A stretch of 64,000 nt of DNA, from contig CASDUK010000001.1 of the NCBI GenBank assembly GCA_949283975.1, forward strand, positions 26,764 through 90,763, written 5' to 3'. The translations under genes were made by a program, and so were the position numbers. Positions within the stretch are counted from its first letter, which is position 1, and each line of letters opens with the position of its first letter. Below, one piece after another: positions 2,543 to 38,675 of this stretch. Source of the stretch: an uncultured Bacillota bacterium. GTDB taxonomy: Bacteria > Bacillota > Clostridia > Christensenellales > UBA1242. Under the pieces are notes generated by a model that was not told the origin of the DNA, did no database searches, and saw only the letters and a list, made by a program, of their open reading frames with translations.

Positions 2543-2986
2543 ATGAAAACCTATATGGCAAAACCAGAAACTGCCCAAAAAGAATGGTTCGTTGTTGATG
2601 CAGATGGTGTTCCATTTGGAAGGCTTGCAAGCCAAGTTGCCCACATTTTGCGCGGGAAACACAAGCCAACGTTTACTCCTAATGTTGACACTGGGGATTA
2701 CGTAATCGTCATCAATTCGGACAAGGCAGTTTTAACCGGAAAGAAATTAACTCAAAAATATTTTAAAACATATTCTGGCTATCAAGGCGGGCTTAAAGAA
2801 ACCCAATTTAAAAAGATGATGGAAGAAAAATCAGATGTTGCACTTCTTCGCGCAATTAAAGGAATGCTTCCAAAAAACGCTCTTGGAAGGGCAATGGCAA
2901 AAAAAGTTAAAATCTATAAAGGTGCAACCCACCCACACGAGGCGCAACACCCAACGCCAATAAAAGTTAAGGGAGGAAGAGAGTAA
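2543..2986 (+). CDS. rplM: 50S ribosomal protein L13
   Basis: 147 aa, [20 protein letters not shown]... SD aaggag upstream. TAATG overlap with rpsI. Confidence 0.95.
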
Positions 2987-3420
2987 TGGCAGAAGCTAAA
3001 AAAGCGGCAAAACCAAGCGTTAAGGTAAAAGCAAACGCATATTGGGCAACCGGAAGAAGAAAAAAAGCAATTGCAAGAGTTCGCCTTGTTCCAAACGGGA
3101 GGGGAGTAATTACAATTAACAAGAAGGACATAGACGAATATTTTGATCATGAAACTCTTAAATACATCGTTCGTCAACCACTTGAACTAACGGAGAATCA
3201 AACAAAATTTGATGTTTTCGTAAACGTTGACGGAGGAGGATACACTGGCCAAGCCGGCGCTATTCGCCTTGGAATTGCAAGGGCGCTTGTTCTTTTTGAG
3301 GAAAATCTTAAACCAGAGCTTAAAAAAGCAGGCTTTTTAACAAGAGATTCCAGAATGAAAGAAAGAAAGAAATATGGGCTTAAAAAGGCAAGAAAAGCTC
3401 CACAGTTTAGTAAGAGATAA
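2986..3420 (+). CDS. rpsI: 30S ribosomal protein S9
   Basis: 144 aa with C-terminal ...[12 protein letters not shown], typical of S9. Confidence 0.95.
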
Positions 3421-3423
3421 AAA

Positions 3424-3445
3424 AAGCGGGTTTCCCGCTTTTTTT
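3424..3445 (+). terminator. intrinsic terminator after rpsI
   Basis: agcggg-ttt-cccgct hairpin followed by a T7 run. Confidence 0.8.
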
Positions 3446-3603
3446 GTAAATTAATTCCTCAGCTAATTTGGGCTTAAGTTTGCCGGTTAATTGGTTTCGA
3501 TATGTTGAGTTTGAGGAGGCTTTTGCTTTAATTGTAAAATGAAGAAAACATTCTAAGCAAACGAAACAGATTGTTGCATGCAACTTAGAGCTGTGTTATA
3601 TTT

Positions 3604-3630
3604 AAAAAAATCTCTTGAAAATCAAGAGAT
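3604..3630 (-). terminator. intrinsic terminator of the 3631..3822 gene
   Basis: tctcttga-aaa-tcaagaga hairpin flanked by an A7 run on plus (T-run on minus). Confidence 0.7.
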
Positions 3631-3822
3631 TTATAAATCCATTTCCTGGCCGCCGTTTTGCTTTGAAAAGGCGTTTTCTTTTGCAACAGAGTAGTTGTGG
3701 TATGCGGCAATTGCTCTTTTTGGATTTCTGTTAAGCGTTTCTTTGACAAAGTTATTCCAACCCTCTCTTGCAGCGGGAGTAATGTTATATGGCATTTCTT
3801 GCGGGCTTTTATAACTTTGCAT
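3631..3822 (-). CDS. small soluble protein, unknown function (63 aa)
   Basis: I start at the internal ATG (MQSYKSPQEM...) because GGAGG lies 5 nt upstream. It has a strong promoter and its own terminator. Confidence 0.6.
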   Translation of the reverse strand: MQSYKSPQEMPYNITPAAREGWNNFVKETLNRNPKRAIAAYHNYSVAKENAFSKQNGGQEMDL

Positions 3823-3872
3823 GTTGACCTCCAATTTGCCTCAATAACTTTATCCTATGTTTTCACACTAAT

Positions 3873-3901
3873 ATTATACATTTTGGAAGTAGATTTGTAA
3901 A
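3873..3901 (-). promoter_or_regulatory. sigma-A type promoter for the 63-aa protein gene
   Basis: Minus strand reads TTTACA, 17-nt spacer, TATAAT. Confidence 0.6.
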
Positions 3902-4001
3902 TAGAAAATGGCAATTTTTTTGGAATTTCAAAATCTTTGTAATCTTTAACCAAAGTTTGTTATTTTGTTAATTTACATTACAAACAAGGCTTCTCTTAAT
4001 A

Positions 4002-4982
4002 TTATATGCACTTAACTGTTAAAACTGCCAACGCAACGCTTGCACCAACAATTGGGTTGTTTCCCATTCCAATAAAGCCCATCATTTCAACATGGGCAGG
4101 AACGGAGCTGCTTCCGGCAAATTGGGCGTCGCAGTGCATTCTTCCCATGGTGTCCGTAAGGCCATAACTTGCTGGGCCGGCTTTGACATTGTCTGGGTGG
4201 AGCGTTCTTCCCGTTCCCCCTCCAGATGCAACGGAGAAATATTTCTTTCCGTTTTCCATGCACCATTTTTTGTATGTTCCAGCAACAGGGTGTTGAAATC
4301 TAACTGGGTTAGTTGAATTTCCGGTTATTGAAACATCAACACTTTCATGTTTCATAATTGCAACGCCTTCGTTGACATCATAAGCGCCATAGATTTTAAC
4401 ATTTACGCTTGTTCCGTTTGAGAAGCGCTTTTCGCCAACAATTTTAAGTTGGTCTGTTTCTTGATTATATTGCGTTTCAACAAATGTAAACCCGTTTATT
4501 CTTGCAATTATATATGCTGCGTCCTTTCCAAGGCCGTTTAAAATTACTTTTAGTGGAGTTTTTCTAACCTCATTGGCTCTTCTTGCAATTCCCATTGCGC
4601 CCTCTGCCGCGGCAAAGCTTTCGTGGCCAGCTAAAAAGCAAAAACACTTTGTTTCCTCGGAAAGAAGCATTTTTGCAAGCGCTCCGTGGCCAATTCCAAT
4701 TTTTCGTTGGTCTGCAACAGAACCTGGAACGCAAAATGCTTGAAGACCCTCTCCAATTGAATCACAGACGGATTCAATTGATTTTTTGCCCTTAACAATT
4801 GCAATTGCAACTCCAAGGGTATAGGCCCAAACAGCGTTGTCGAAGGCAATTGGTTGAATTCCTTTAACAACCGCTGCAACATCAATTCCCTTTGAATTGC
4901 AAATTTCTTTTGCCTTTTCCAAACTTTCTATTCCATATTTCTTTAAACAAACATCTATTGCCGGTTTTCTTTTATTGTTCAT
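4002..4982 (-). CDS. GGGtGRT family protein (conserved, function unknown)
   Basis: 326 aa containing the family-defining motif SGGGTGRTLHPDN. SD ggagg upstream. Confidence 0.8.
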   Translation of the reverse strand: MNNKRKPAIDVCLKKYGIESLEKAKEICNSKGIDVAAVVKGIQPIAFDNAVWAYTLGVAIAIVKGKKSIESVCDSIGEGLQAFCVPGSVADQRKIGIGHGALAKMLLSEETKCFCFLAGHESFAAAEGAMGIARRANEVRKTPLKVILNGLGKDAAYIIARINGFTFVETQYNQETDQLKIVGEKRFSNGTSVNVKIYGAYDVNEGVAIMKHESVDVSITGNSTNPVRFQHPVAGTYKKWCMENGKKYFSVASGGGTGRTLHPDNVKAGPASYGLTDTMGRMHCDAQFAGSSSVPAHVEMMGFIGMGNNPIVGASVALAVLTVKCI

Positions 4983-4995
4983 AATTTTTCCTCCA

Positions 4996-5673
4996 CTATT
5001 GTTTCCTTGGGTTGATTACTTTAACTGCATCGCTAAATCTTCCATATGTTTTAGTGCTTTTAGAAATTGCTTCTTCAATTTCAGTTCCGTTTTGAAGGTT
5101 CATCATTAGCGTTCCAAGCGAAATATATTCATACCCAATAATCTCTCCGTTTTCGTCCAAGCCCTGTTTTGTTATATATCCTTCTGCCAAATTTAAATAT
5201 CTTGTTCCAATTTTGTCGTTTGAATAAACCGTTCCAACTTGGCTGGATTTTGTTTTTCCAAGGTCTTCTCTTGCCGCGCCAATTTCAAGCCCTCCTTCGC
5301 TGAAAGCAGATTGGCTTCGTCCATAGACAAGTTGAAGGAAAACCTGTTTCATTGCAACGTTTATTGCATCGCAAACAAGGTCGGTGTTTAGAGCCTCTAA
5401 AAGAGTTTTCCCAATTAAAATTTCGGCAGCCATTGCCGCAGAGTGGGTCATTCCGCTGCAACCAATTGTTTCAACAAGCGCCTCTTTAATTATTCCGTTT
5501 TTAACATTAATTGTTAGTTTACAAGCGCCCTGTTGAGGAGCGCAAGTTCCAACCCCGTGGGAAAAGCCGCTTATGTCCTCAATTTTTTTTGCGCTAACAA
5601 ACTTTCCTTCCTCCGGAATTGGCGAAGGGCCAAAAGAATTTAAATTTTTTACTTTGCAAAAATTTTCTTCCAT
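4996..5673 (-). CDS. NifU/IscU-like Fe-S cluster scaffold domain protein
   Basis: 225 aa. The N-terminal half has the IscU-like three-Cys pattern (GVGTCAPQQGAC...ETIGCSGMTHSAAMAAE). SD aaggag upstream. 13 nt upstream of the GGGtGRT gene. Confidence 0.7.
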   Translation of the reverse strand: MEENFCKVKNLNSFGPSPIPEEGKFVSAKKIEDISGFSHGVGTCAPQQGACKLTINVKNGIIKEALVETIGCSGMTHSAAMAAEILIGKTLLEALNTDLVCDAINVAMKQVFLQLVYGRSQSAFSEGGLEIGAAREDLGKTKSSQVGTVYSNDKIGTRYLNLAEGYITKQGLDENGEIIGYEYISLGTLMMNLQNGTEIEEAISKSTKTYGRFSDAVKVINPRKQ

Positions 5674-5817
5674 ATTTTTCTCCTTATTTAATATCTTACC
5701 AAAAAATTAAAAAAAAACATAACTTATTAGTCAAAATTAAAAAAAAAGAAAATTTATTAGAAAAATTTAAAAGTTTTTTAACAAATTTTGGTTAAGAAAT
5801 ATTGCGCATTTTTGTTG

Positions 5818-5846
5818 TTGACGGCAGGGTAAAAATATTTTATAAT
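5818..5846 (+). promoter_or_regulatory. sigma-A type promoter (distal, upstream of truA)
   Basis: TTGACG, 17-nt spacer, TATAAT. Confidence 0.5.
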
Positions 5847-5916
5847 GTTTTTAATTGCGAGAGATCAAAAAAAAATAAAAATTAACGGTTTTCCGACAAT
5901 TAATTTTTAAAATTTA

Positions 5917-5931: not shown

Positions 5932-6705
5932 ATGAAAATATTACTTACAATTAGTTATAAAGGAACCGGCTATGTTGGCTGGCAGAATCAAAAGAACGGA
6001 AAAAGCGTTCAAAAAACAATTGAAAAGGCAATTTCAAAATTGCTTAGACAAGATGTTGAACTCGATGGAAGTGGAAGAACAGACGCTGGGGTTCATGCCT
6101 TTGGCCAAACGGCAACTTTTGAGGCAACTTCAAATTCATTCTTTTCTAATTTCACAAGCAAAGGTTCAAAAAAAATTTGCCTAAATTCAGCAAGGTTTGT
6201 TCGCGCAATTAACGCCTATCTTCCGTCAGACATCTATGTAACTTCTGCAAAAGAGGTTTCTGAAAACTTCCATGCAAGATATTCCGCAAAGGAAAAGGTT
6301 TATGAATATCATCTTCAAGTTGGGAAAAATCCAATTTTAGGTGGGCTTGTTGGCGAATTTAATCAGATGCCAAACTTGGAGCTTATCAAAGAAGCTGCGC
6401 AAATTCTTGTTGGAACTCACGATTTTTCCTCCTTTTGCAGCGCAAAGGCGGAGGTTTCCGACTATGTAAGAACAATTAACTACATTAAAATTTATATGAC
6501 AAAAGCAGACCAAATTATCTTCGAAATTTCTGGAAACGGCTTTTTGTATAACATGGTTAGAATAATTGTTGGAACGCTTTATGATGTTGGAATTGGAAAG
6601 ATAAAACCAGAAGAAGTTAAAGAAATTCTTTCCGCAAAGGATAGAACCAAGGCGGGAAAAACTGCGCCAGCCTCTGGGCTTTACCTAAAAAAAGTTAAAT
6701 ATTAA
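5932..6705 (+). CDS. truA: tRNA pseudouridine(38-40) synthase
   Basis: 257 aa with the GSGRTDAGVHA catalytic motif. Confidence 0.9.
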   Translation: MKILLTISYKGTGYVGWQNQKNGKSVQKTIEKAISKLLRQDVELDGSGRTDAGVHAFGQTATFEATSNSFFSNFTSKGSKKICLNSARFVRAINAYLPSDIYVTSAKEVSENFHARYSAKEKVYEYHLQVGKNPILGGLVGEFNQMPNLELIKEAAQILVGTHDFSSFCSAKAEVSDYVRTINYIKIYMTKADQIIFEISGNGFLYNMVRIIVGTLYDVGIGKIKPEEVKEILSAKDRTKAGKTAPASGLYLKKVKY

Positions 6706-10107: not shown

Positions 10108-11435
10108 GATTTTTTGCAAAAAATAATCCATATAAAGGGAAAAGAATTTTAATTTATGGCCTTGGAAGAAGCGGACTTTCGGCAAAGGCCTTTCTTTCGT
10201 CTTGCGGGGCAAAAGTTCAAACTTTTGTTGACGGAGAAAAGAACAAAAAAATTAATTTTGAAAAACTTTCAATGGCGGTTGTTAGCCCTGGCGTTAGTTT
10301 GGATTGTCAGTTGGTTTGTCAGCTTAAAAGAGCGGGCGTTCCAATTTTGGCCGAACTTGAACTTGGATATTTAAATGTTAACGGAAATTACATTGCAATT
10401 ACAGGAACAAACGGAAAGACAACAACAGTTTCGCTTGTTTACAAAATTTTAGAAGGGCAAAACACCTTTCTTGCGGGAAACATTGGAATTCCGCTTACAT
10501 CTCTCGCGGGGAAAACAGATTCGAGAAGCATAATTGTTTGTGAGGTTAGCTCCTATCAGCTTGAAACTTGCAAGCAGTTTAGGCCAAAGATTTCTGCAAT
10601 TTTAAACCTTGCGCCCGACCATTTGACAAGGCACAAAACATATCAAAACTATTGCAATTCCAAGGCAAAGATTTTTCAAAATCAAACGGAAAAGGACTAT
10701 TGTGTTTTAAACTATGATGAAGAAGAAGTTCTTGCTCTTTCAGAAAGGTGCGCGGCAAAAAAATATTATTTTTCCAAATTTAACCAGCTTTCAAATCCAA
10801 ACTTTAAGGGCGCATATCTTTGCGGCGAGGAAATTTATTTTAAAGAAAATTTTTATAATGTTTACATAATGAACAAGGCTCAAATTAAGCTAGTTGGAGA
10901 AAAAAACCTTGAGAATGTTCTTGCGGCAATAACAATTGCAAGTCTTTGTGGGCTTAGCGGCGAAAAAATTTCGTCTAAAGTTTCAAATTTTTTCCCGCTT
11001 CCAAACCGGCTTGAATTTGTTTTAAAAAAGGGAAATATAACTTGCATAAACGACAGCAAGGCAACAAACATTGCAAGCGCACTTTCCGACATATCTGCAA
11101 CTAGCGGCAACATTGTTGTTCTTCTTGGCGGAAGCGACAAAGGGGAGGACTTTAAAAGGCTTTTTTCGAATTTAAATGAAAGTGTTAAACACGCAATAAT
11201 CTATGGCGCTTCGTCCGAAAAAATGGTTTCCTCGGCGGGCGAAGTTGGTTTTAAAAATTTTTCTGTTGCAAAAAACCTAAAAGAGGCGGTTTCTCAAGGA
11301 ATTAAATTTTCAAGGGAGTTTGACGGCGAAATAAATCTTCTTCTTTCTCCTGCATGCGCAAGTTTTGATGAATTTAAAAATTTTGAGCATCGCGGACAAT
11401 ATTTTAAAAAATTGGTTGTGGAGGAATTAAAATGA
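10104..11435 (+). CDS. murD: UDP-MurNAc-L-Ala:D-Glu ligase
   Basis: 443 aa with GTNGKTT. TTG start overlaps the mraY TGA. Confidence 0.85.
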   Translation: MRFFAKNNPYKGKRILIYGLGRSGLSAKAFLSSCGAKVQTFVDGEKNKKINFEKLSMAVVSPGVSLDCQLVCQLKRAGVPILAELELGYLNVNGNYIAITGTNGKTTTVSLVYKILEGQNTFLAGNIGIPLTSLAGKTDSRSIIVCEVSSYQLETCKQFRPKISAILNLAPDHLTRHKTYQNYCNSKAKIFQNQTEKDYCVLNYDEEEVLALSERCAAKKYYFSKFNQLSNPNFKGAYLCGEEIYFKENFYNVYIMNKAQIKLVGEKNLENVLAAITIASLCGLSGEKISSKVSNFFPLPNRLEFVLKKGNITCINDSKATNIASALSDISATSGNIVVLLGGSDKGEDFKRLFSNLNESVKHAIIYGASSEKMVSSAGEVGFKNFSVAKNLKEAVSQGIKFSREFDGEINLLLSPACASFDEFKNFEHRGQYFKKLVVEELK

Positions 11436-16171: not shown

Positions 16172-16310
16172 TTTTTTTATATTTTTTTAAAAAAATTTTT
16201 AAAAAGCATGTAAAAAAACTTGACAGGGGGGAGGGGGGCTGATAGGATATATATAGGCTTGCGGGATAAAAATTTTTTAAAAAAGAAAAATAAAAAAAGG
16301 GGGGATAAAA

Positions 16311-17162
16311 ATGGGAACAAAATTAAAAATGCTTTGGGTTGGAGTTGCTTTGGTCTTTGCCCTTGTTCTAACGCTTGGGCTTTCGGCCTTCGTCTTTGCT
16401 GCGCCAAACGAAAGCTTTAATTTAAGCGGAAAGCTTTCCTATGAAGGCGGCCCTCAGGTTGTTAAATATTATTGGTCGGAGTTTGTTCCTGGCAGCTCGA
16501 CTGATGGCCTAGCAAGTCAAAATTTAAAACTTTTTGACGATGGAACACTGAAATATGAAATGGAAATGACCATGGGTTCGCAAACAATGGGAACGACCAT
16601 GGGCGCAACTTACACAAAGGGCGAAATTGCCTACCTTTTCCAACCGACGTCACTCTACAGTTATGCGGCAGTTGATGGAATAATTTCAGCTGAACTGGAA
16701 TGGAACGAAGAAGACGGAGAGAATGAGGTTTATAAAGAGGTTGAGAGCCTCATGGAGAATTTTCAAATTTACGAGCACGTTGCCCATTGCGGCGACTTTG
16801 GCTGGTTTTTTGAGGACGGCTATGTTCCTTCGGAAAAGGATCAACCTTTAAGCGGCTTTTTTGCTGATGATATAGATGCTAGATCATATTGTTTCGCTGG
16901 CCTTACCGGAACAGAAACTTTTGGAGAAATTCGTTCGAGCTTTTATAATAGAAGACTTACCTTTGCTTTGGACAAAACAGACCCAGATTATCAAAACATT
17001 CCGGAAGTTGTGCATGCTTACCCCTTTCAGCTTTTAAAGTTGGACGGCCAGGACGCAACGGACAACACGGTTGTTTCGCTTGGTTATCACACAGCGGAAG
17101 TTAGGTTTGAATATAATGGCCAAACATATACATTGTTGGTTGATTTTGTTACAACAGATTAA
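16311..17162 (+). CDS. secreted protein, unknown function
   Basis: 283 aa with an N-terminal signal-like segment (LWVGVALVFALVLTLGLSAFVFA). A G6 SD lies upstream. Confidence 0.6.
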   Translation: MGTKLKMLWVGVALVFALVLTLGLSAFVFAAPNESFNLSGKLSYEGGPQVVKYYWSEFVPGSSTDGLASQNLKLFDDGTLKYEMEMTMGSQTMGTTMGATYTKGEIAYLFQPTSLYSYAAVDGIISAELEWNEEDGENEVYKEVESLMENFQIYEHVAHCGDFGWFFEDGYVPSEKDQPLSGFFADDIDARSYCFAGLTGTETFGEIRSSFYNRRLTFALDKTDPDYQNIPEVVHAYPFQLLKLDGQDATDNTVVSLGYHTAEVRFEYNGQTYTLLVDFVTTD

Positions 17163-17809: not shown

Positions 17810-18283
17810 ATGCCAAGAAGAAATAGTGCTGTCAAAAGAGATGTTCTTCCAGACCCAATGTATAACAGCAAACTTGTAACAAAACTTATTAACCAAGTTA
17901 TGTTAGATGGCAAGAAGGGCTTAGCGCAATCAATTGTTTATGGCGCATTTGACAGAGTTAAAGAAAAACTTGGTCTTGAACCGCTTGACGCTTTCAACCA
18001 AGCGCTTGAAAACACAAAACCTCTTCTTGAAACAAAGGGAAGAAGAGTTGGCGGTGCAACATACCAAGTTCCAATGGAAATTAGGCCAGAACGCCGCCAA
18101 ACCCTTGCAATTCGTTGGATTGTAACTTTTGCAAGAAAGCGCAACGGCGAAAGAACAATGGAGGAAAGGCTTGCTGGCGAATTAATTGATGCATACAACA
18201 ACACTGGCGCTGCTGTTAAAAGAAAGGAAGAGATGCATCGTATGGCTGAGGCTAACAAGGCTTTTGCTCACTACCGCTGGTAA
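17810..18283 (+). CDS. rpsG: 30S ribosomal protein S7
   Basis: 157 aa, [20 protein letters not shown]... Confidence 0.97.
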
Positions 18284-18288
18284 AACTT

Positions 18289-18800
18289 CCTTAAATTGGT
18301 TTATACTGTGTCGCTTCGGTTTTTTTGAACTCTCATGTATTATTCATACACTTCAGTCCAAAAAAACCTGTGCTCCTTGTCTAAACGCAATTTAAGAAAG
18401 TTTTAAAAAAGCTAAGGATTTCCTTAAATTGGTTTATACTAGCGCCCTTTCGGTTTTTTTGAACTCTCATGTATTATTCATACACTTCAGTCCAAAAAAC
18501 CCTGTGCTCCTTGTCTAAACACAATTTAAGAAAGTTTTAAAATCTAAGGACTCCTTAAATTGGTTTACACTGCGTCGCTTCGGTTTTTTGAACTCTCATG
18601 TAGCAGTCTACACATCAGTCCAAAAAAACCTGTGCTCCTTGTCTAAACACAATTTAAGAAAGTTTTAAAAAAGCTAAGGATTTCCTTAAATTGGTTTATA
18701 CTGTGTCGCCTCGTGTTTTTTGAACTCTCATGTAGCAGTCTACACATCAGTCCAAAAAACCCTGTGCTCCTTGTCTAAACACAATTTAAGAAAGTTTTAA
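18289..18800 (+). repeat. four tandem copies of a ~131-133 bp long-hairpin element (candidate structured RNA or REP/MITE-like unit)
   Basis: Copies start at 18289, 18422, 18553 and 18684. Each has inverted arms CTTAAATTGGTTTA/TAAACnCAATTTAAG, inner arms GG-T7-G/C-A7-CC, and an apical 5-bp stem. Compensatory differences occur between copies. Confidence 0.85.
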
Positions 18801-18909
18801 GTTTTTTTAAAAATAGTTCGAGTTTAGCTGAAATTAGCGGACAAAGATTTGATTTCTTCAAATTTTTAAGATAATTTCCAAGCTTTGGAAATTTAAGGAG
18901 GTTTTAAGT

Positions 18910-19231: not shown

Positions 19232-21304
19232 ATGGCTGAAGATTTACGTTTGACCAGAAACGTTGGAATTATGGCACACATCGATGCGGGAAAGACAACA
19301 ACAACAGAAAGAATTCTTTTCTACACCGGAAAGAGCCACAAAATTGGTGAAGTTCATGACGGCCAAGCAACAATGGACTGGATGGCTCAAGAACAGGAAA
19401 GAGGAATTACAATTACTTCTGCCTGCACAACATGCCAATGGAATGGTCATAAAATCAACATCATCGACACCCCAGGCCACGTTGACTTTACAATTGAAGT
19501 TTTGCGTTCGTTAAAGGTTTTGGACGGGGCTGTTTTGGTTTTGAGCGCAAGAGATAAAGTTCAACCTCAAACAGAAACAGTTTGGCGCCAGGCAACAGAA
19601 TGTAAAGTTCCAGTTATCATCTATGTTAACAAAATGGATAGAGATGATGCATATTTCGACAAGTGTGTTGACAGCGTTAGAGAAAGGCTTCACACAACGC
19701 CGCTTCCTCTTCAAATGCCAATTGGAATGGCAGAAACATTTAAAGGCGTTATTGACCTTTTGAAGATGAAAGCATACATTCCAGAAGACGACCTTGGAAA
19801 GATTATTGACGAGGTTGAAATTCCAGAAGAATATAAAGCAGAGGCAGAAAAGAGAAGAAGCCAACTTATAGAAGCAATTGTTGAAACAGACGATGCTCTT
19901 TTGGAAAAATATTTTGAGGGAGAGGAAATTTCAATTCAAGAATTAAACAAAGCAATTCGCGCGGCAACAATTTCAAAGAAAGTAACGCCAATGCTTTGCG
20001 GCTCTTCCTATAAAAACAAAGGCGTTCAAAATCTTTTGGACGCAATGGTTGAATATCTTCCATCGCCTCTTGACATTGAGGCAATTAAGGGAATTAACCC
20101 AGAAACAGGAAAAGAAGAAAGCAGAGAAGCAGATGTTAAAGCGCCTTTTGCAGGCCTTGCATTTAAAATTGCAACAGACCCGTTTGTTGGCGGGTTAACT
20201 TTCTTCCGCGTTTACAGCGGTGTTTTAAAAGCAGGTTCATATGTTTACAACTCAATTACCGGAAAAACCGAAAGAGTTGGAAGGCTTATTAGAATGCACG
20301 CAAACAACAGAACAGAAATTCAGGAAGTTGGAGCGGGAGATATCGCAGCAATTGTTGGCCTTAAAGATACAATAACTGGCCACACGCTTTGCGATGAAAA
20401 ACACCCAATTCAACTTGAAAGCATGAATTTCCCAGAGCCAGTTATTCAACTTGCAATTGAGCCTAAAACAAAGGATATGCAGGAAAAAATGGCGCTTGCG
20501 CTTGCAAAGCTTTCCCGTGAAGACCCCTCTTTTAGGGTTTCAACAAACAGCGAAACAGGGCAAACTCTTATTGCCGGAATGGGTGAGCTCCACCTTGAAA
20601 TTATTGTTGATCGCTTGCTTCGCGAGTTTAAAGTTGAGGCAAATGTTGGCCAACCACAGGTTTCCTATCGTGAAACAATTACAAGGCCGGTTAAGGCAGA
20701 GGGTAAATATATCCGTCAGTCCGGCGGTAAAGGACAATATGGCCACTGCTTAATTGAAATGGAACCGCTTGAAAGAGGAGCGGGGTATGAGTTTGTTGAC
20801 AAAACAGTTGGCGGCTCAATTCCAAAAGAATATATCCAGCCAATCAACAACGGAATTAAAGAGGCAAAAATGTGCGGAGTTTTGGCAGGATATGAAACGG
20901 TTGACTTTAGAGTTACTGTTTATGACGGATCTTTCCACGAAGTTGACTCCTCAGAAATGGCCTTCAAAATTGCCGGCTCAATGGCATTTAAAGATGGCGC
21001 AACAAAAGCTGGCCCAGTTCTGCTTGAGCCAATTATGAAAGTTACTGTTGAAGTTCCAGATGAATATCTTGGAACGGTTATGGGAAACCTTACAAGCCGC
21101 CGAGGAATCCTTCTTGGAAACGACACAATTCCGGGCGTTCAAAGAATTAACGCAGAAGTTCCTCTTGCAGAAATGTTTGGTTATGCAACAGATTTGCGTT
21201 CTCAAACCCAGGGGCGCGGAACTTTTGTTATGGAGCCTCTTAAATATCAGGAAGTTCCAAAGTCAATTACCGACAAAATTGTTGGTGAAAGAGCTAAAAA
21301 ATAG
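19232..21304 (+). CDS. fusA: translation elongation factor G
   Basis: 690 aa with AHIDAGKTT and DTPGHVDF motifs. Confidence 0.97.
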
Positions 21305-26266: not shown

Positions 26267-26866
26267 ATGATAGTTAGCAGTTCGGAATTTGTTAAAAGTG
26301 TTTCAAAATTTGAAAATCTTTTAGATCTTGGTGCATATGAATTTGCTTTTGTTGGAAGGAGCAACTGTGGGAAAAGTTCGCTGATAAATATGTTAACTTC
26401 GCGGAAAAAACTTGCAAAAACATCTCAAACTCCTGGCCACACAAAACTTGTAAACTATTTTTTAATAAATAAAAACAAGCCAAACATGTTTGTTTTAGTT
26501 GACCTTCCGGGCTATGGTTTTTCCAGGGCAGGAAAGGAGCAGAGCGAAAATTGGAGTCCGCTTATTGAAGGATATTTGCTAAATGGAAAAAACTTAAAGC
26601 GCGTTTTTGTTTTGATTGATTGTCGCCACAAGCCAACAGAAAAGGATTTGCAACTTGTAAATTTCTTGTATTACAACCAAATTCCGTTTTGCGTTGTTTT
26701 AACCAAGGTTGACAAGCTTTCAAAGGCTCAGCTTTCAAAAAATCTTCCCGAAATTGTTGCAACGCTAAAACTCGGGAAGGAAAATTTAATTAAATCATCT
26801 TCTCAAACTGGTCAGGGCAGGGAAGAAATTTTGGAAATAATTGAGAGAGATTTAACCTCTATTTAG
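26267..26866 (+). CDS. engB: ribosome biogenesis GTPase EngB/YsxC
   Basis: MIVSSSEFVKSVS...GRSNCGKSSLINML. The track start at 26240 is a possible alternative. Confidence 0.85.
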   Translation: MIVSSSEFVKSVSKFENLLDLGAYEFAFVGRSNCGKSSLINMLTSRKKLAKTSQTPGHTKLVNYFLINKNKPNMFVLVDLPGYGFSRAGKEQSENWSPLIEGYLLNGKNLKRVFVLIDCRHKPTEKDLQLVNFLYYNQIPFCVVLTKVDKLSKAQLSKNLPEIVATLKLGKENLIKSSSQTGQGREEILEIIERDLTSI

Positions 26867-36259: not shown

Positions 36260-37360
36260 ATGTATCAGGCGCTTTACAGAAAATATCGCCCAACAACTTT
36301 CGATGAGGTTGTTGGCCAAAAACACATAACAAAAACGCTTTCAAACCAGGTTAAGAAGGGCGAAATTTCCCATGCATATCTCTTTTCGGGAACAAGGGGA
36401 ACGGGGAAAACAAGCATTGCAAGAATTTTTGCGCGCGCAATAAACTGCCTTTCGCCGGTTGATGGCTCGCCATGCTATAAGTGTGAAGTTTGCAAAGCTC
36501 TTTCAGAGCAAAATTGCATGGACATTTTGGAAATTGACGCAGCCTCCAATAACAGAGTTGACGAAGTTAGAGAAATTAGAGAAAAGGTTAAGTTTCTTCC
36601 AACAAATGGAAAGTTTAAGGTTTATATCATAGACGAAGTTCACATGCTTACCGACAGCGCCTTCAACGCTCTTTTAAAAACGCTTGAAGAGCCGCCTTCC
36701 CACGTTGTTTTTATTCTTGGAACAACTGAGCCACACAAACTTCCACAAACAATTCTTTCAAGATGTTTAAGGTTTGATTTTAAACTTATTTCTCCAACAG
36801 AGTTAAAACAGCATTTAATTTCAATTTTTAACAAAGAAAACATAAACTATGAGGATTTGGCGGTTGATTTAATTGTTTCTGCCGCCCAGGGAAGCGTTAG
36901 AGACATGCTTTCAATTGCAGATGCTGTCGTTTCGCTTGGGGGAGGCGTTGCAAGTTATTTAAACGCGCTCAGCATTCTTGGCGCAACAAACCAGGAAAAA
37001 CTTTTTGCGTTTGCAGACCAAATTTTATCTGGAAATTTAGGCGGCGCATTTGAGGTTGTTGACGAAGCAATTAAAGGCGGAATTAACATCTCTGTTTTTG
37101 CAAAAGATTTAACAGTTCATTTTAGAAATCTTCTTGTTGCAAAAACATGTGAAAACTGTGAAGGAATTTTAAACCTTCCTGCCGATGTTGTTCAAAAGAT
37201 GAAAGATCAGGCGAAAGATGTAAGCGAAGAAGAGCTTATGTTTTTGATGAGAAATTTTAGCGAAATTGAACCAGAATTAAAATATTCTTTAAGTCCAAGA
37301 ACGCTTGTTGAAGTTGCTTGCGTTAAGGCAATTTCCGGCGAAGGCTCAAAAAAAAACTAA
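36260..37360 (+). CDS. dnaX: DNA polymerase III gamma/tau subunit, domains I-III (zero-frame product ends right after an A9 run)
   Basis: MYQALYRKYRPTTFDEVVGQ...GTRGTGKTS...Cys cluster. Stop TAA at 37358. Confidence 0.9.
   Translation: MYQALYRKYRPTTFDEVVGQKHITKTLSNQVKKGEISHAYLFSGTRGTGKTSIARIFARAINCLSPVDGSPCYKCEVCKALSEQNCMDILEIDAASNNRVDEVREIREKVKFLPTNGKFKVYIIDEVHMLTDSAFNALLKTLEEPPSHVVFILGTTEPHKLPQTILSRCLRFDFKLISPTELKQHLISIFNKENINYEDLAVDLIVSAAQGSVRDMLSIADAVVSLGGGVASYLNALSILGATNQEKLFAFADQILSGNLGGAFEVVDEAIKGGINISVFAKDLTVHFRNLLVAKTCENCEGILNLPADVVQKMKDQAKDVSEEELMFLMRNFSEIEPELKYSLSPRTLVEVACVKAISGEGSKKN
37348..37356 (+). promoter_or_regulatory. A9 slippery run (A_AAA_AAA) at the dnaX zero-frame terminus
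   Basis: GGC TCA AAA AAA AAC TAA. The -1 frame is open from 37327 through to 37689. Confidence 0.6.
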
Positions 37361-37374
37361 AAATTAAGGAAAAT

Positions 37375-37689
37375 TTGCCTCAACCAAAGCAAATTTGGGG
37401 AAAACTTTTAACAAGGCTTAGAGAAAGCGGAGAGGCGGCGCTTTTTGTTTCTTGCGGGGAAATTTTAGATGTTGCCCTTGAGGAAGGAGCGCTTGTTGCC
37501 AGGACAGACAAGGAATATATCTCAGATTTAATATCAACAAATGAAAACATTTTAACAATTAAACGCGCGCTAAGGTTTTTGGGTTTTAATTTAGATTTTA
37601 AAGTTGTTAAAACAGCTTCAAAAGATGCAGACGAAATTTCAGACATAAACTTTTTAAAGGAAAAATTTGATAATTTAATTGTTGAATAG
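37375..37689 (+). CDS. dnaX: DnaX (tau) C-terminal domain segment, in -1 frame relative to dnaX
   Basis: 104 aa, (M)PQPKQIWGKLLTRLRESGEAALFVSCGEI... This resembles the C-terminal domain of Firmicute DnaX. It also has its own SD-like aagga 5 nt before the TTG. Confidence 0.6.
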   Translation: MPQPKQIWGKLLTRLRESGEAALFVSCGEILDVALEEGALVARTDKEYISDLISTNENILTIKRALRFLGFNLDFKVVKTASKDADEISDINFLKEKFDNLIVE

Positions 37690-37749: not shown

Positions 37750-38082
37750 ATGGGCGGATATAGAAATTTTGGCGGAGGCTTTGGCGGCGGCTTTAACATG
37801 CAACAACTTATGAAACAGGCGCAAAAGATGCAAGAAGACATGGAAAAAGCAAAGCAGGAACTAAATGAAACAAGGTTTTCTGCTAAAGCTGGCGGCGGAA
37901 TGGTTGAGGCTGTTTTAACGGGAGACAAAAAAATTGTTTCTCTAACAATAAAAAAAGAAATTGTTGATCCCGATGATGTTGAAATGCTTCAAGATTTGGT
38001 TATTGCCGCGGTTAACGACTGTGTTAGTCAAATTGAAAAAGTTGAAAAGGAAAATGGGCCGGGCGCTCTTGGGCTTATGTAA
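37750..38082 (+). CDS. ybaB: nucleoid-associated protein YbaB/EbfC
   Basis: 110 aa with MQQLMKQAQKMQEDMEKAKQEL. Conserved dnaX-ybaB-recR order. Confidence 0.9.
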   Translation: MGGYRNFGGGFGGGFNMQQLMKQAQKMQEDMEKAKQELNETRFSAKAGGGMVEAVLTGDKKIVSLTIKKEIVDPDDVEMLQDLVIAAVNDCVSQIEKVEKENGPGALGLM

Positions 38083-38084
38083 AT

Positions 38085-38675
38085 ATGAATCAAATTAAAG
38101 CTTTGGAAAACCTTGTTGGATATTTTAGGGCTCTTCCAGGCGTTGGCCTAAAAACAGCCCAGAGGTATGCATATAAAATAATTAACTCCGAAAGTTCGTT
38201 TGCGGAGGGCTTTTCCAGCGCAATTTTAGATGCAAAGAAGAAAATTGGCTATTGCAAAGAGTGTGGGAATTTTACGGACAGGGAAGTTTGTGAAATTTGC
38301 AGTGAAAGAAACCCAAAAGTTATCTGTGTTGTTAAAGAACCAAAGGATGTTGTTGCAATTGAAAAGGCAAAAATTTTTAATGGTGTTTATCATGTTCTCC
38401 ATGGAACGATAAGCCCGCTTGAAAACAGAGGGCCAAACGACATTAGAATTAAGGAGCTTTTGGAAAGAATTTCAAAATTCCAAACCCAAGAGGTTATCAT
38501 GGCAACAAATCCCGATGTTGAGGGCGATGCAACTGCGCTTTATATTGCAAAACTTTTAAAACCGCTTGGTGTTAAGGTAACAAGGCTTGCTCAGGGCGTT
38601 TCAATGGGAAGCGAACTTGAATATGCAGACGAGGTAACGCTTGCCAGAGCAATTGAGGCAAGAAGAGAAATTTAG
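38085..38675 (+). CDS. recR: recombination protein RecR
   Basis: 196 aa with a zinc finger (CKECGNFTDREVCEIC) and a Toprim region. Confidence 0.92.
   Translation: MNQIKALENLVGYFRALPGVGLKTAQRYAYKIINSESSFAEGFSSAILDAKKKIGYCKECGNFTDREVCEICSERNPKVICVVKEPKDVVAIEKAKIFNGVYHVLHGTISPLENRGPNDIRIKELLERISKFQTQEVIMATNPDVEGDATALYIAKLLKPLGVKVTRLAQGVSMGSELEYADEVTLARAIEARREI

Follow-up and report, generated by a model that had tools for sequence, protein, structure and literature searches.

The locus described here raises the question of whether a gene that appears to be cut in two by a run of A's is damaged, or whether the run is a site at which the reading frame is changed by design. The gene is dnaX, and it lies in a 64,000-nucleotide stretch of DNA (referred to as the window) from an uncultured Bacillota bacterium (Clostridia; Christensenellales; UBA1242), corresponding to positions 26,764 to 90,763 of the forward strand of contig CASDUK010000001.1 in the GenBank assembly GCA_949283975.1. 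In the zero frame, dnaX is an open reading frame (ORF) of 366 codons on the plus strand (36260..37360), whose 3' end reads GGC TCA AAA AAA AAC TAA and whose product is gamma-like, comprising domains I-III and ending in GSKKN before the stop TAA at 37358-37360. We place its start at ATG 36260 rather than at an upstream GTG, because relatives begin MYQALYRKYRP. The stop is reached immediately after a tract of exactly nine A's (37348..37356, plus strand), within which two slippery heptamers are in phase, A_AAA_AAA at 37348-37354 and A_AAA_AAC at 37351-37357; the C that follows and the stop adjoining it (CTAA, 37357..37360) end the gamma-like product one codon past the run. The -1 frame, shut by a TAA at 37324-37326, is open from 37327 through the run and ends with TAG at 37687-37689. 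Upon a -1 shift, the predicted junction peptide is GSKKKLKIKENLPQPKQIWGK, and the extension encoded at 37354..37689 (KLKIKENLPQPKQIWGK…LIVE, 111 codons and the stop) together with the N-terminal part gives a tau-like protein of 476 amino acids (aa). Read directly from the sequence, the split, the A9 run, the 366-aa product and the -1 frame up to 37689 are all as given in an earlier note on this stretch, which had proposed recoding to a tau-like fusion of about 480 aa.

Our answer to the question is that the A9 tract is very probably a conserved programmed recoding site, used by the polymerase or by the ribosome, and that slippage of RNA polymerase is probably, though with considerable room for doubt, the main route of the shift. 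According to this model, standard transcription and translation would produce the 366-aa gamma-like clamp-loader subunit, and part of the expression would shift to the -1 frame within the run, producing the 476-aa protein with an additional C-terminal domain of about 97 aa. The shift would occur when RNA polymerase slips on the run and adds one A to the mRNA (A9 to A10), perhaps helped by a GC-richer hairpin just 5' of the run. Ribosomal -1 frameshifting on the two in-phase heptamers would be a possible contributor, and polymerase and ribosome may both take part. It is from sequence that we infer that the tau-like product is made at all, at which level the frame is shifted, and with what efficiency; production of a full-length tau is argued for by the purifying selection acting on the -1 ORF and by the lack of a separate start codon in several lineages.

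Homopolymers such as a run of nine A's are classic places for a single-base error, and the earlier note had accordingly kept open a homopolymer sequencing or assembly error; a decaying pseudogene would be a related explanation. The comparison with relatives speaks strongly against both. Using the fused 476-aa sequence as the query against a large protein collection, we took the best 120 clusters, of which 118 were classifiable (57-97% identity). In 103 of these dnaX is split, with a length of 365-390 aa, 75-80% of the query covered and a C-terminus of the type …KKN, the stop falling exactly after KKN in 71 cases and KKH, KKK or QKN occurring as rare variants. The window's own 90% cluster contains 33 member sequences from about 80 contigs (NCBI, ENA and Logan), and its listed full-length members are all 366 aa long. 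The same split is thus found on some 80 contigs of the species cluster and in more than 100 related clusters from different projects. At the level of 50%-identity representatives the search was uninformative, as long proteins stand for the split clade there and lengths become unusable. The pattern recurs at the DNA level, where 24 of 27 distinct junctions from independent assemblies are split, the continuation being in the -1 frame in all 24 and always at the run; the truncation is therefore shared by close relatives, the comparison that the note had suggested, and recoding to the fusion gains support from the recurrence of the split at the same place and in the same direction in many lineages and assemblies. 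As far as these sequences reach, the layout is found in a clade of uncultured Clostridia, mostly from gut metagenomes. A profile scan of genome contigs, made with an N-terminal alignment, returned mostly distant, unsplit dnaX among the matches listed, and among the 80 loci listed only L001 had the split at an A-run; a metagenome search yielded 11 loci. The lineages compared are related and not phylogenetically independent.

The window itself gives no indication of frequent homopolymer errors. The A9 of dnaX is its sole homopolymer of at least nine bases within a long ORF, the other four A9 runs being intergenic, and also its sole homopolymer of at least eight bases that parts two long frames of one gene; one further frame change at a run of at least eight, at 11435, is an ordinary gene start. 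Five other 8-base runs sit inside intact ORFs, so a general signature of homopolymer error is absent, and no ORF other than dnaX is broken at a homopolymer in the 64 kilobases. In addition, the ratio of nonsynonymous to synonymous substitution rates (dN/dS) of the -1 ORF is 0.10-0.33 in the informative diverged pairs, indicating purifying selection on the downstream frame. Given the recurrence across assemblies, the intact state of the other ORFs and this selection, we rejected sequencing error and pseudogene formation, whose joint probability we regard as close to nil.

The conserved features of the junction are concentrated in the run and in the few bases that follow it. In an alignment of 26 of the junctions, anchored at the 3' end of the run, the final seven A's never vary, and A occupies position -8 in 23 junctions and position -9 in 25. 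The first base after the run is C in 24 of the 26 and never G, and the second is T in 23, followed by A or G, as a consequence of which a TAA, TGA or TAG stop adjoins the AAC codon. The flanks of the junction carry 0-0.9 bits, and the number of linker codons that separate the conserved domain from the run differs between lineages, ranging from about 10 to more than 100. The run has nine A's in most lineages, and 10, 11 (L107) or 7 (L093/L094 and L106) in others; a run of 8 is seen in none, and 23 of the 26 junctions have A9, A10 or A11. The same constraint is visible in the proteins: the residue preceding KK is in none of the 103 split clusters one that lacks a codon of the form xxA, compared to 31% at neighbouring positions. 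An xxA codon is thus always available before KK, and the run is thereby kept at nine or more.

What would be gained by the shift can be judged from the downstream frame. With phmmer, the -1 ORF matches unsplit DnaX proteins, 480-590 aa in length, over their final ~100 residues (E-values from 2e-18 to 5e-5), and among GTDB genomes a profile of the domain matches unsplit dnaX at its C-terminal end. On these alignments, the -1 ORF corresponds to the C-terminal domain found in unsplit DnaX, in line with the assignment proposed for it in the note. A Pfam search of the 366-aa part recovers DNA_pol3_delta2, DNAX_ATPase_lid and DNA_pol3_gamma3 (the clamp-loader ATPase module, the lid and gamma domain III), and no Pfam domain is matched in the -1 part. 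The conserved region (WGK…CGEI…, 37396..37686, plus strand, ~97 aa) is modelled with confidence by AlphaFold2 as a small alpha/beta domain, with a predicted local distance difference test score (pLDDT) of 84.6. All Foldseek matches to this model are weak (E at least 0.015), the top one being DnaA domain I, with template modelling (TM) scores of 0.54-0.75, and others being DciA and domain V of Escherichia coli tau (5fku_E, 2aya). DnaA domain I, DciA and tau domain V have been described as sharing one KH-like fold. In E. coli, the C-terminal domain of tau tethers the polymerase to the clamp loader, and tau is essential. By analogy, the ~97-aa domain would have a role in binding the polymerase.

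One could also imagine that the two parts are made as separate polypeptides, the gamma-like protein being accompanied by a C-terminal domain translated from its own start, a route that the earlier note had considered for this locus. The window does have AAGGA at 37366-37370, followed after 4 nucleotides (nt) by a TTG at 37375 in the -1 frame (37366..37377, plus strand), just where the note had placed them, and in some relatives stand-alone ORFs of 92-134 aa are called by gene callers. This start is however specific to the lineage. The TTG is missing in L109, a relative of 80% identity that has no in-frame start at all, and between the upstream stop and the domain there is no ATG, GTG or TTG in the -1 frame in L081/L095, L089, L093/L094, L101 and L109; most of the other split lineages lack a Shine-Dalgarno (SD) sequence before the -1 ORF. 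Since several split lineages thus have no in-frame start codon, and most others no SD, independent initiation cannot, on the sequences compared, be the general route by which the domain is expressed, and a frame change in the run is required. Separate translation would moreover leave the invariant A-run, the C and the stop unexplained, and, judging from E. coli tau, a free domain would link nothing to the clamp loader. We therefore consider it quite improbable that the two parts are generally made apart, and the TTG at 37375 could at most be a minor internal start.

If a frame change in the run is accepted, the remaining question is whether it is made by RNA polymerase or by the ribosome. Several observations lead us to favour the polymerase. 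The run has at least nine A's in nearly all lineages, although a heptamer would suffice for a ribosome, and both the availability of an xxA codon before KK and the lack of runs of 8 point in the same direction. Three lineages in which tau is encoded in frame nevertheless keep the run, with the layout known from Thermus, and there are precedents for slippage on A9 in Thermus dnaX and in the insertion sequence IS1447 (see below). Finally, there is no excess of RNA structure downstream of the run, and the 45 nt upstream of it fold better. In the window, a stem-loop is predicted at 37303..37345 (plus strand), ending 2 nt before the run, with a folding energy of -15.6 kcal/mol (z = -1.8 relative to shuffled sequences). 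No other 45-nt window of the gene folds more stably, whether or not windows are matched for GC content, and the stem-loop is a candidate for a nascent-RNA stimulator of polymerase slippage. Across lineages, the 45 nt that precede the run are more stably folded than the gene's other windows (median percentile 0.15); after GC matching they fall at or below the 15th percentile in 9 of 18 lineages, with the window ranking first. A stem-loop located directly 5' of the slippage motif is a known stimulator of polymerase slippage in the IS630 element of Roseiflexus (PMC5009743).

Downstream of the run, no structure excess was observed across 23 junctions in comparison with windows of the same gene (median percentile 0.44, Kolmogorov-Smirnov p = 0.99), the mean z relative to shuffles being -0.5. 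The note had pointed to an 8-bp hairpin here, and the inverted repeat AAATTTGC (37371-37378) / GCAAATTT (37389-37396) is indeed present where it was placed (37371..37396, plus strand). It is however not part of the minimum-free-energy fold of the region, and as that fold is no more stable than shuffled sequences (z = 0.10 and -0.08) and the repeat is absent from relatives, a stimulating role for it in the shift finds no support.

A number of points weigh against the reading of the site as one of polymerase slippage that yields a polymerase-binding tau. Three split lineages (L093/L094 and L106) have only seven A's, each with an in-phase heptamer of the form X_XXY_YYZ, as required for frameshifting by the ribosome, the junctions reading CA[A_AAA_AAC] in L093 and TC[A_AAA_AAA] in L106. 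The shift is always in the -1 direction, although slippage of the polymerase could in principle serve a +1 layout as well. The upstream structure is heterogeneous, with about half of the lineages lacking it; its mean z is only -0.34 relative to dinucleotide shuffles, so that composition contributes to it, and the lineages in this comparison are related to one another. The purine-rich motif GGNGA(A/T)G, found 10-14 nt upstream of the run in 15-18 of the 26 junctions (with G/GA enriched at -20, -17 and -16), could be a weak SD-like stimulator of ribosomal frameshifting. For the domain, the link to tau domain V is made by weak fold matches, with Foldseek E-values of 0.07-0.24, and neither a profile search of PDB sequences with the domain nor Pfam gave a meaningful match.

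Some of these points are those that would be expected if the shift were made mainly by the ribosome, through -1 frameshifting on A_AAA_AAC (37351-37357) or A_AAA_AAA (37348-37354), perhaps aided by the adjacent stop codon or by the weak upstream SD-like GGCGAAGG. An in-phase heptamer is retained at every split junction, including the three with seven A's, the direction is constant, and the purine-rich segment lies at the SD spacing of E. coli dnaX. In the element IS1, A_AAA_AAC is a proven bacterial -1 site that works without a known stimulator (PMC4066793). The same literature describes A_AAA_AAC without a stimulator as a site of low efficiency (PMC4066793), however. A conserved downstream stem-loop is absent; as an SD, the purine motif upstream is poor, about a third of the lineages lack it, and in the window GGCGAAGG, 4-11 nt before the run, is a weak SD match. 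A search of Rfam with the dnaX site, including the DnaX frameshift element, gave no match other than a noise-level PreQ1 match on the A-run. The run is, in addition, kept at nine or more A's where seven would be enough. We thus regard the ribosome as an unlikely main agent, and retain polymerase slippage as the favoured route.

The reading frame is not the same in all relatives. In eight of the 118 clusters that could be classified, the frame continues without a break through a KKK[L] junction. Two of these, P0027 and P0028, which are in frame and have A10 in L087/L088, are ~99-100% identical in their N-terminal 345 aa to the split P0060 and P0092; in the species group formed by these four, 31 member sequences are split and 2 are in frame. 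As assembled, both states therefore occur within one species-level group, which suggests either that the length of the tract is polymorphic within one species or that assemblies differ in rare cases. The in-frame clusters P0036, P0062, P0065 and P0106 represent separate lineages. In the in-frame alleles L087 (A10), L110 (A11) and L111 (A10) the run is retained, and stops follow in both other frames 1-3 codons later. The coexistence of split and in-frame alleles fits a remark by Atkins et al. 2016 (PMC5009743) that, at an efficiency near 50%, a change of one nucleotide can swap which of the dnaX products needs recoding.

One might go further and propose that the variation in length is itself the mechanism, the tract being hypermutable at the DNA level and A10 cells that arise by replication slippage supplying tau. 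Both states have been assembled in the species-level group just described, and in-frame A10 or A11 alleles occur in at least three further lineages. The split state strongly predominates, however, with 103 clusters against 8 overall and a similar imbalance within that species group; the uniform 366-aa length of the full-length members listed for the window's own cluster also speaks against such switching, and if an essential replisome subunit were switched heritably, most cells would have no tau. As a source of tau, replication slippage is thus very improbable indeed, and the coexistence of the two states may leave a small place for variation of the tract at the DNA level.

Returning to slippage by RNA polymerase, one could also speculate that tau is made in a large clade of gut Clostridia only through errors of the polymerase on a bare A-run, and that lineages, and even strains, flip between A9, where tau needs a slip, and A10 or A11, where gamma does, without either product being lost. 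We consider this possible, though doubtful. If true, such flipping would imply that slippage operates near the balanced efficiency at which the two layouts become interchangeable, and the clade would offer a natural series of A7, A9, A10 and A11, with and without a 5' hairpin, for measuring the influence of run length and nascent-RNA structure on the slippage rates of Firmicutes polymerases.

The site can be compared with several known systems. In E. coli, the dnaX shift takes place on A_AAA_AAG, with an SD ~10 nt upstream and a stem-loop 5-8 nt downstream, an arrangement represented in Rfam by the DnaX element. The gene, the domain boundary, the slippery heptamer of lysine codons, the -1 direction and the stop right after the site are the same in the window. 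The heptamer here ends in C or A instead of G, there is no conserved SD, no conserved downstream stem-loop and no Rfam match, and the shifted product is the long one. The dnaX of Thermus thermophilus (Larsen et al. 2000; summaries in PMC1088944 and PMC5009743) produces ~50% of short product by slippage on A9 (PMC1088944). Both sites have nine A's at the gamma/tau boundary, lack a downstream RNA stimulator and have close stops in the non-tau frames. Tau is in the zero frame in Thermus and slippage gives gamma, whereas in the window the unslipped mRNA gives gamma and tau would need an added A; the zero-frame tau of Thermus is found only in the in-frame alleles L087, L110 and L111, whose layout is exactly that of Thermus. 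The statement of the earlier note that recoding would here yield the long product, in reverse of E. coli and Thermus, is accordingly right, though such a layout has already been published.

This published precedent is the two-ORF, "reversed" dnaX of Antonov et al. 2013 (Nucleic Acids Research 41:6514, PMC3711429; restated in PMC5009743), in which recoding is needed for tau. It comprises 17 genes from 12 genera with the -1 arrangement at the DNA level, nine of them with A10 and three more with a shorter poly-A, for which transcriptional realignment was proposed; the genera include Chlorobium, Chloroherpeton, Prosthecochloris, Flavobacterium, Cytophaga, Capnocytophaga and Coraliomargarita (Chlorobi, Bacteroidetes and a verrucomicrobium). 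As in the window, a poly-A tract closes an N-terminal ORF with domains I-III, the DNA encodes the C-terminal part of tau in the -1 frame, the gamma stop is directly past the shift site, orthologues from different genera or lineages agree in where and in which direction the frame changes, and the genes are not annotated as recoded. The published sites mostly consist of A10 followed by G, whereas here A9-10 is followed by C and then by the TAA, TGA or TAG stop; the extension is short here (~110 aa), and split and in-frame alleles coexist in the clade. A reversed dnaX from Clostridia or Firmicutes is named neither in PMC3711429 nor in the papers returned by a full-text literature search. The principle of a two-ORF dnaX is thus already published, and the case in Clostridia, with a motif of its own, is an addition to it.

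Two further systems resemble the site in its proposed mechanism. In IS1447 of Clostridium thermocellum (PMC6211511), an A9 run that follows a stem-loop is transcribed with A10 in 8 of 52 cDNAs (15%) and with A8 in 9 of 52 (17%), compared to 0 of 30 genomic clones, and seven A's are sufficient. It shares with dnaX a Clostridial polymerase, the fusion of two ORFs and an A9 immediately preceded by a stem-loop, which in dnaX is a predicted one; it differs in encoding a transposase, and in that IS1447 needs one A to be lost (a +1 frame change), whereas dnaX needs a gain. In mxiE of Shigella, according to the summary in PMC1088944, one non-templated nucleotide at a homopolymer leads to a longer, functional product. 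Like dnaX, mxiE is a cellular gene of two overlapping ORFs with an insertion at a homopolymer, although the protein is unrelated and the run is another.

These comparisons add the Bacillota as a third major lineage with the reversed dnaX layout, and show that split and unsplit alleles exist side by side around a conserved A-run. They open no new category of mechanism, and support selection for both gamma and tau well beyond Proteobacteria and Thermus, at whichever level the slippage occurs. In practical terms, annotations of a dnaX of this kind show a short "gamma/tau" protein with a "hypothetical protein" behind it, and a flag for truncation is also possible. Once the site is recognised, the full tau is restored, and the gene is no longer counted as a pseudogene or assembly error in quality checks of metagenome-assembled genomes (MAGs). 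Being widespread, conserved and unannotated in gut Clostridia, the site should also be a good natural system for the study of slippage.

Downstream of dnaX lie its usual partners ybaB (37750-38082) and recR (38085-38675), both on the plus strand (37750..38675), which fix the end of the dnaX locus. Related loci have the same ybaB-recR order, with Pfam YbaB_DNA_bd and RecR domains. In the close relatives L081/L082, a gene for a transporter of the major facilitator superfamily (3935-5419) lies between the C-terminal piece of dnaX and ybaB, and in L109 a 200-aa ORF (2985-3587) occupies this place. Given these interposed genes, the junction between dnaX and ybaB is not fixed in this family.

A split dnaX of another kind was seen in L020 (~3600-4064; GTDB MAG "Clostridia bacterium RGIG1719", JAFQDL010000009.1), where there is no A-run. 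The zero frame ends in …GAG TGC CCC TAA (…SGECP*), and the C-terminal domain goes on in the +1 frame (…PKLNKLKT…). This may reflect a +1 shift of tRNA-Pro on CCC with the stop in the ribosomal A site, or an error in a single MAG. The 382-aa P0177 has a similar ending, …INSVLP.

Repeats were also noticed elsewhere in the window. Between a probable rpsG (17810-18283) and a 98-aa ORF, which is followed by a 690-aa probable fusA (19232-21304), there are four tandem copies of a ~131-nt unit (18281-18860), each with an internal inverted repeat GGTTTTTTTGAACTCTCATGTAT / ATACACTTCAGTCCAAAAAAACC; both gene names are guesses from ORF length and order only, and a search of Rfam with the tandem repeat gave no family at threshold. 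Three of the intergenic A9 runs lie within 170 nt (5709-5875), in a divergent region between ORFs 4996-5673 (minus strand) and 5932-6705 (plus strand), two of them being preceded by the same AAAATT. At 16226-16304, three G6 runs and several A7/T7 runs are clustered just upstream of the ORF 16311-17162.

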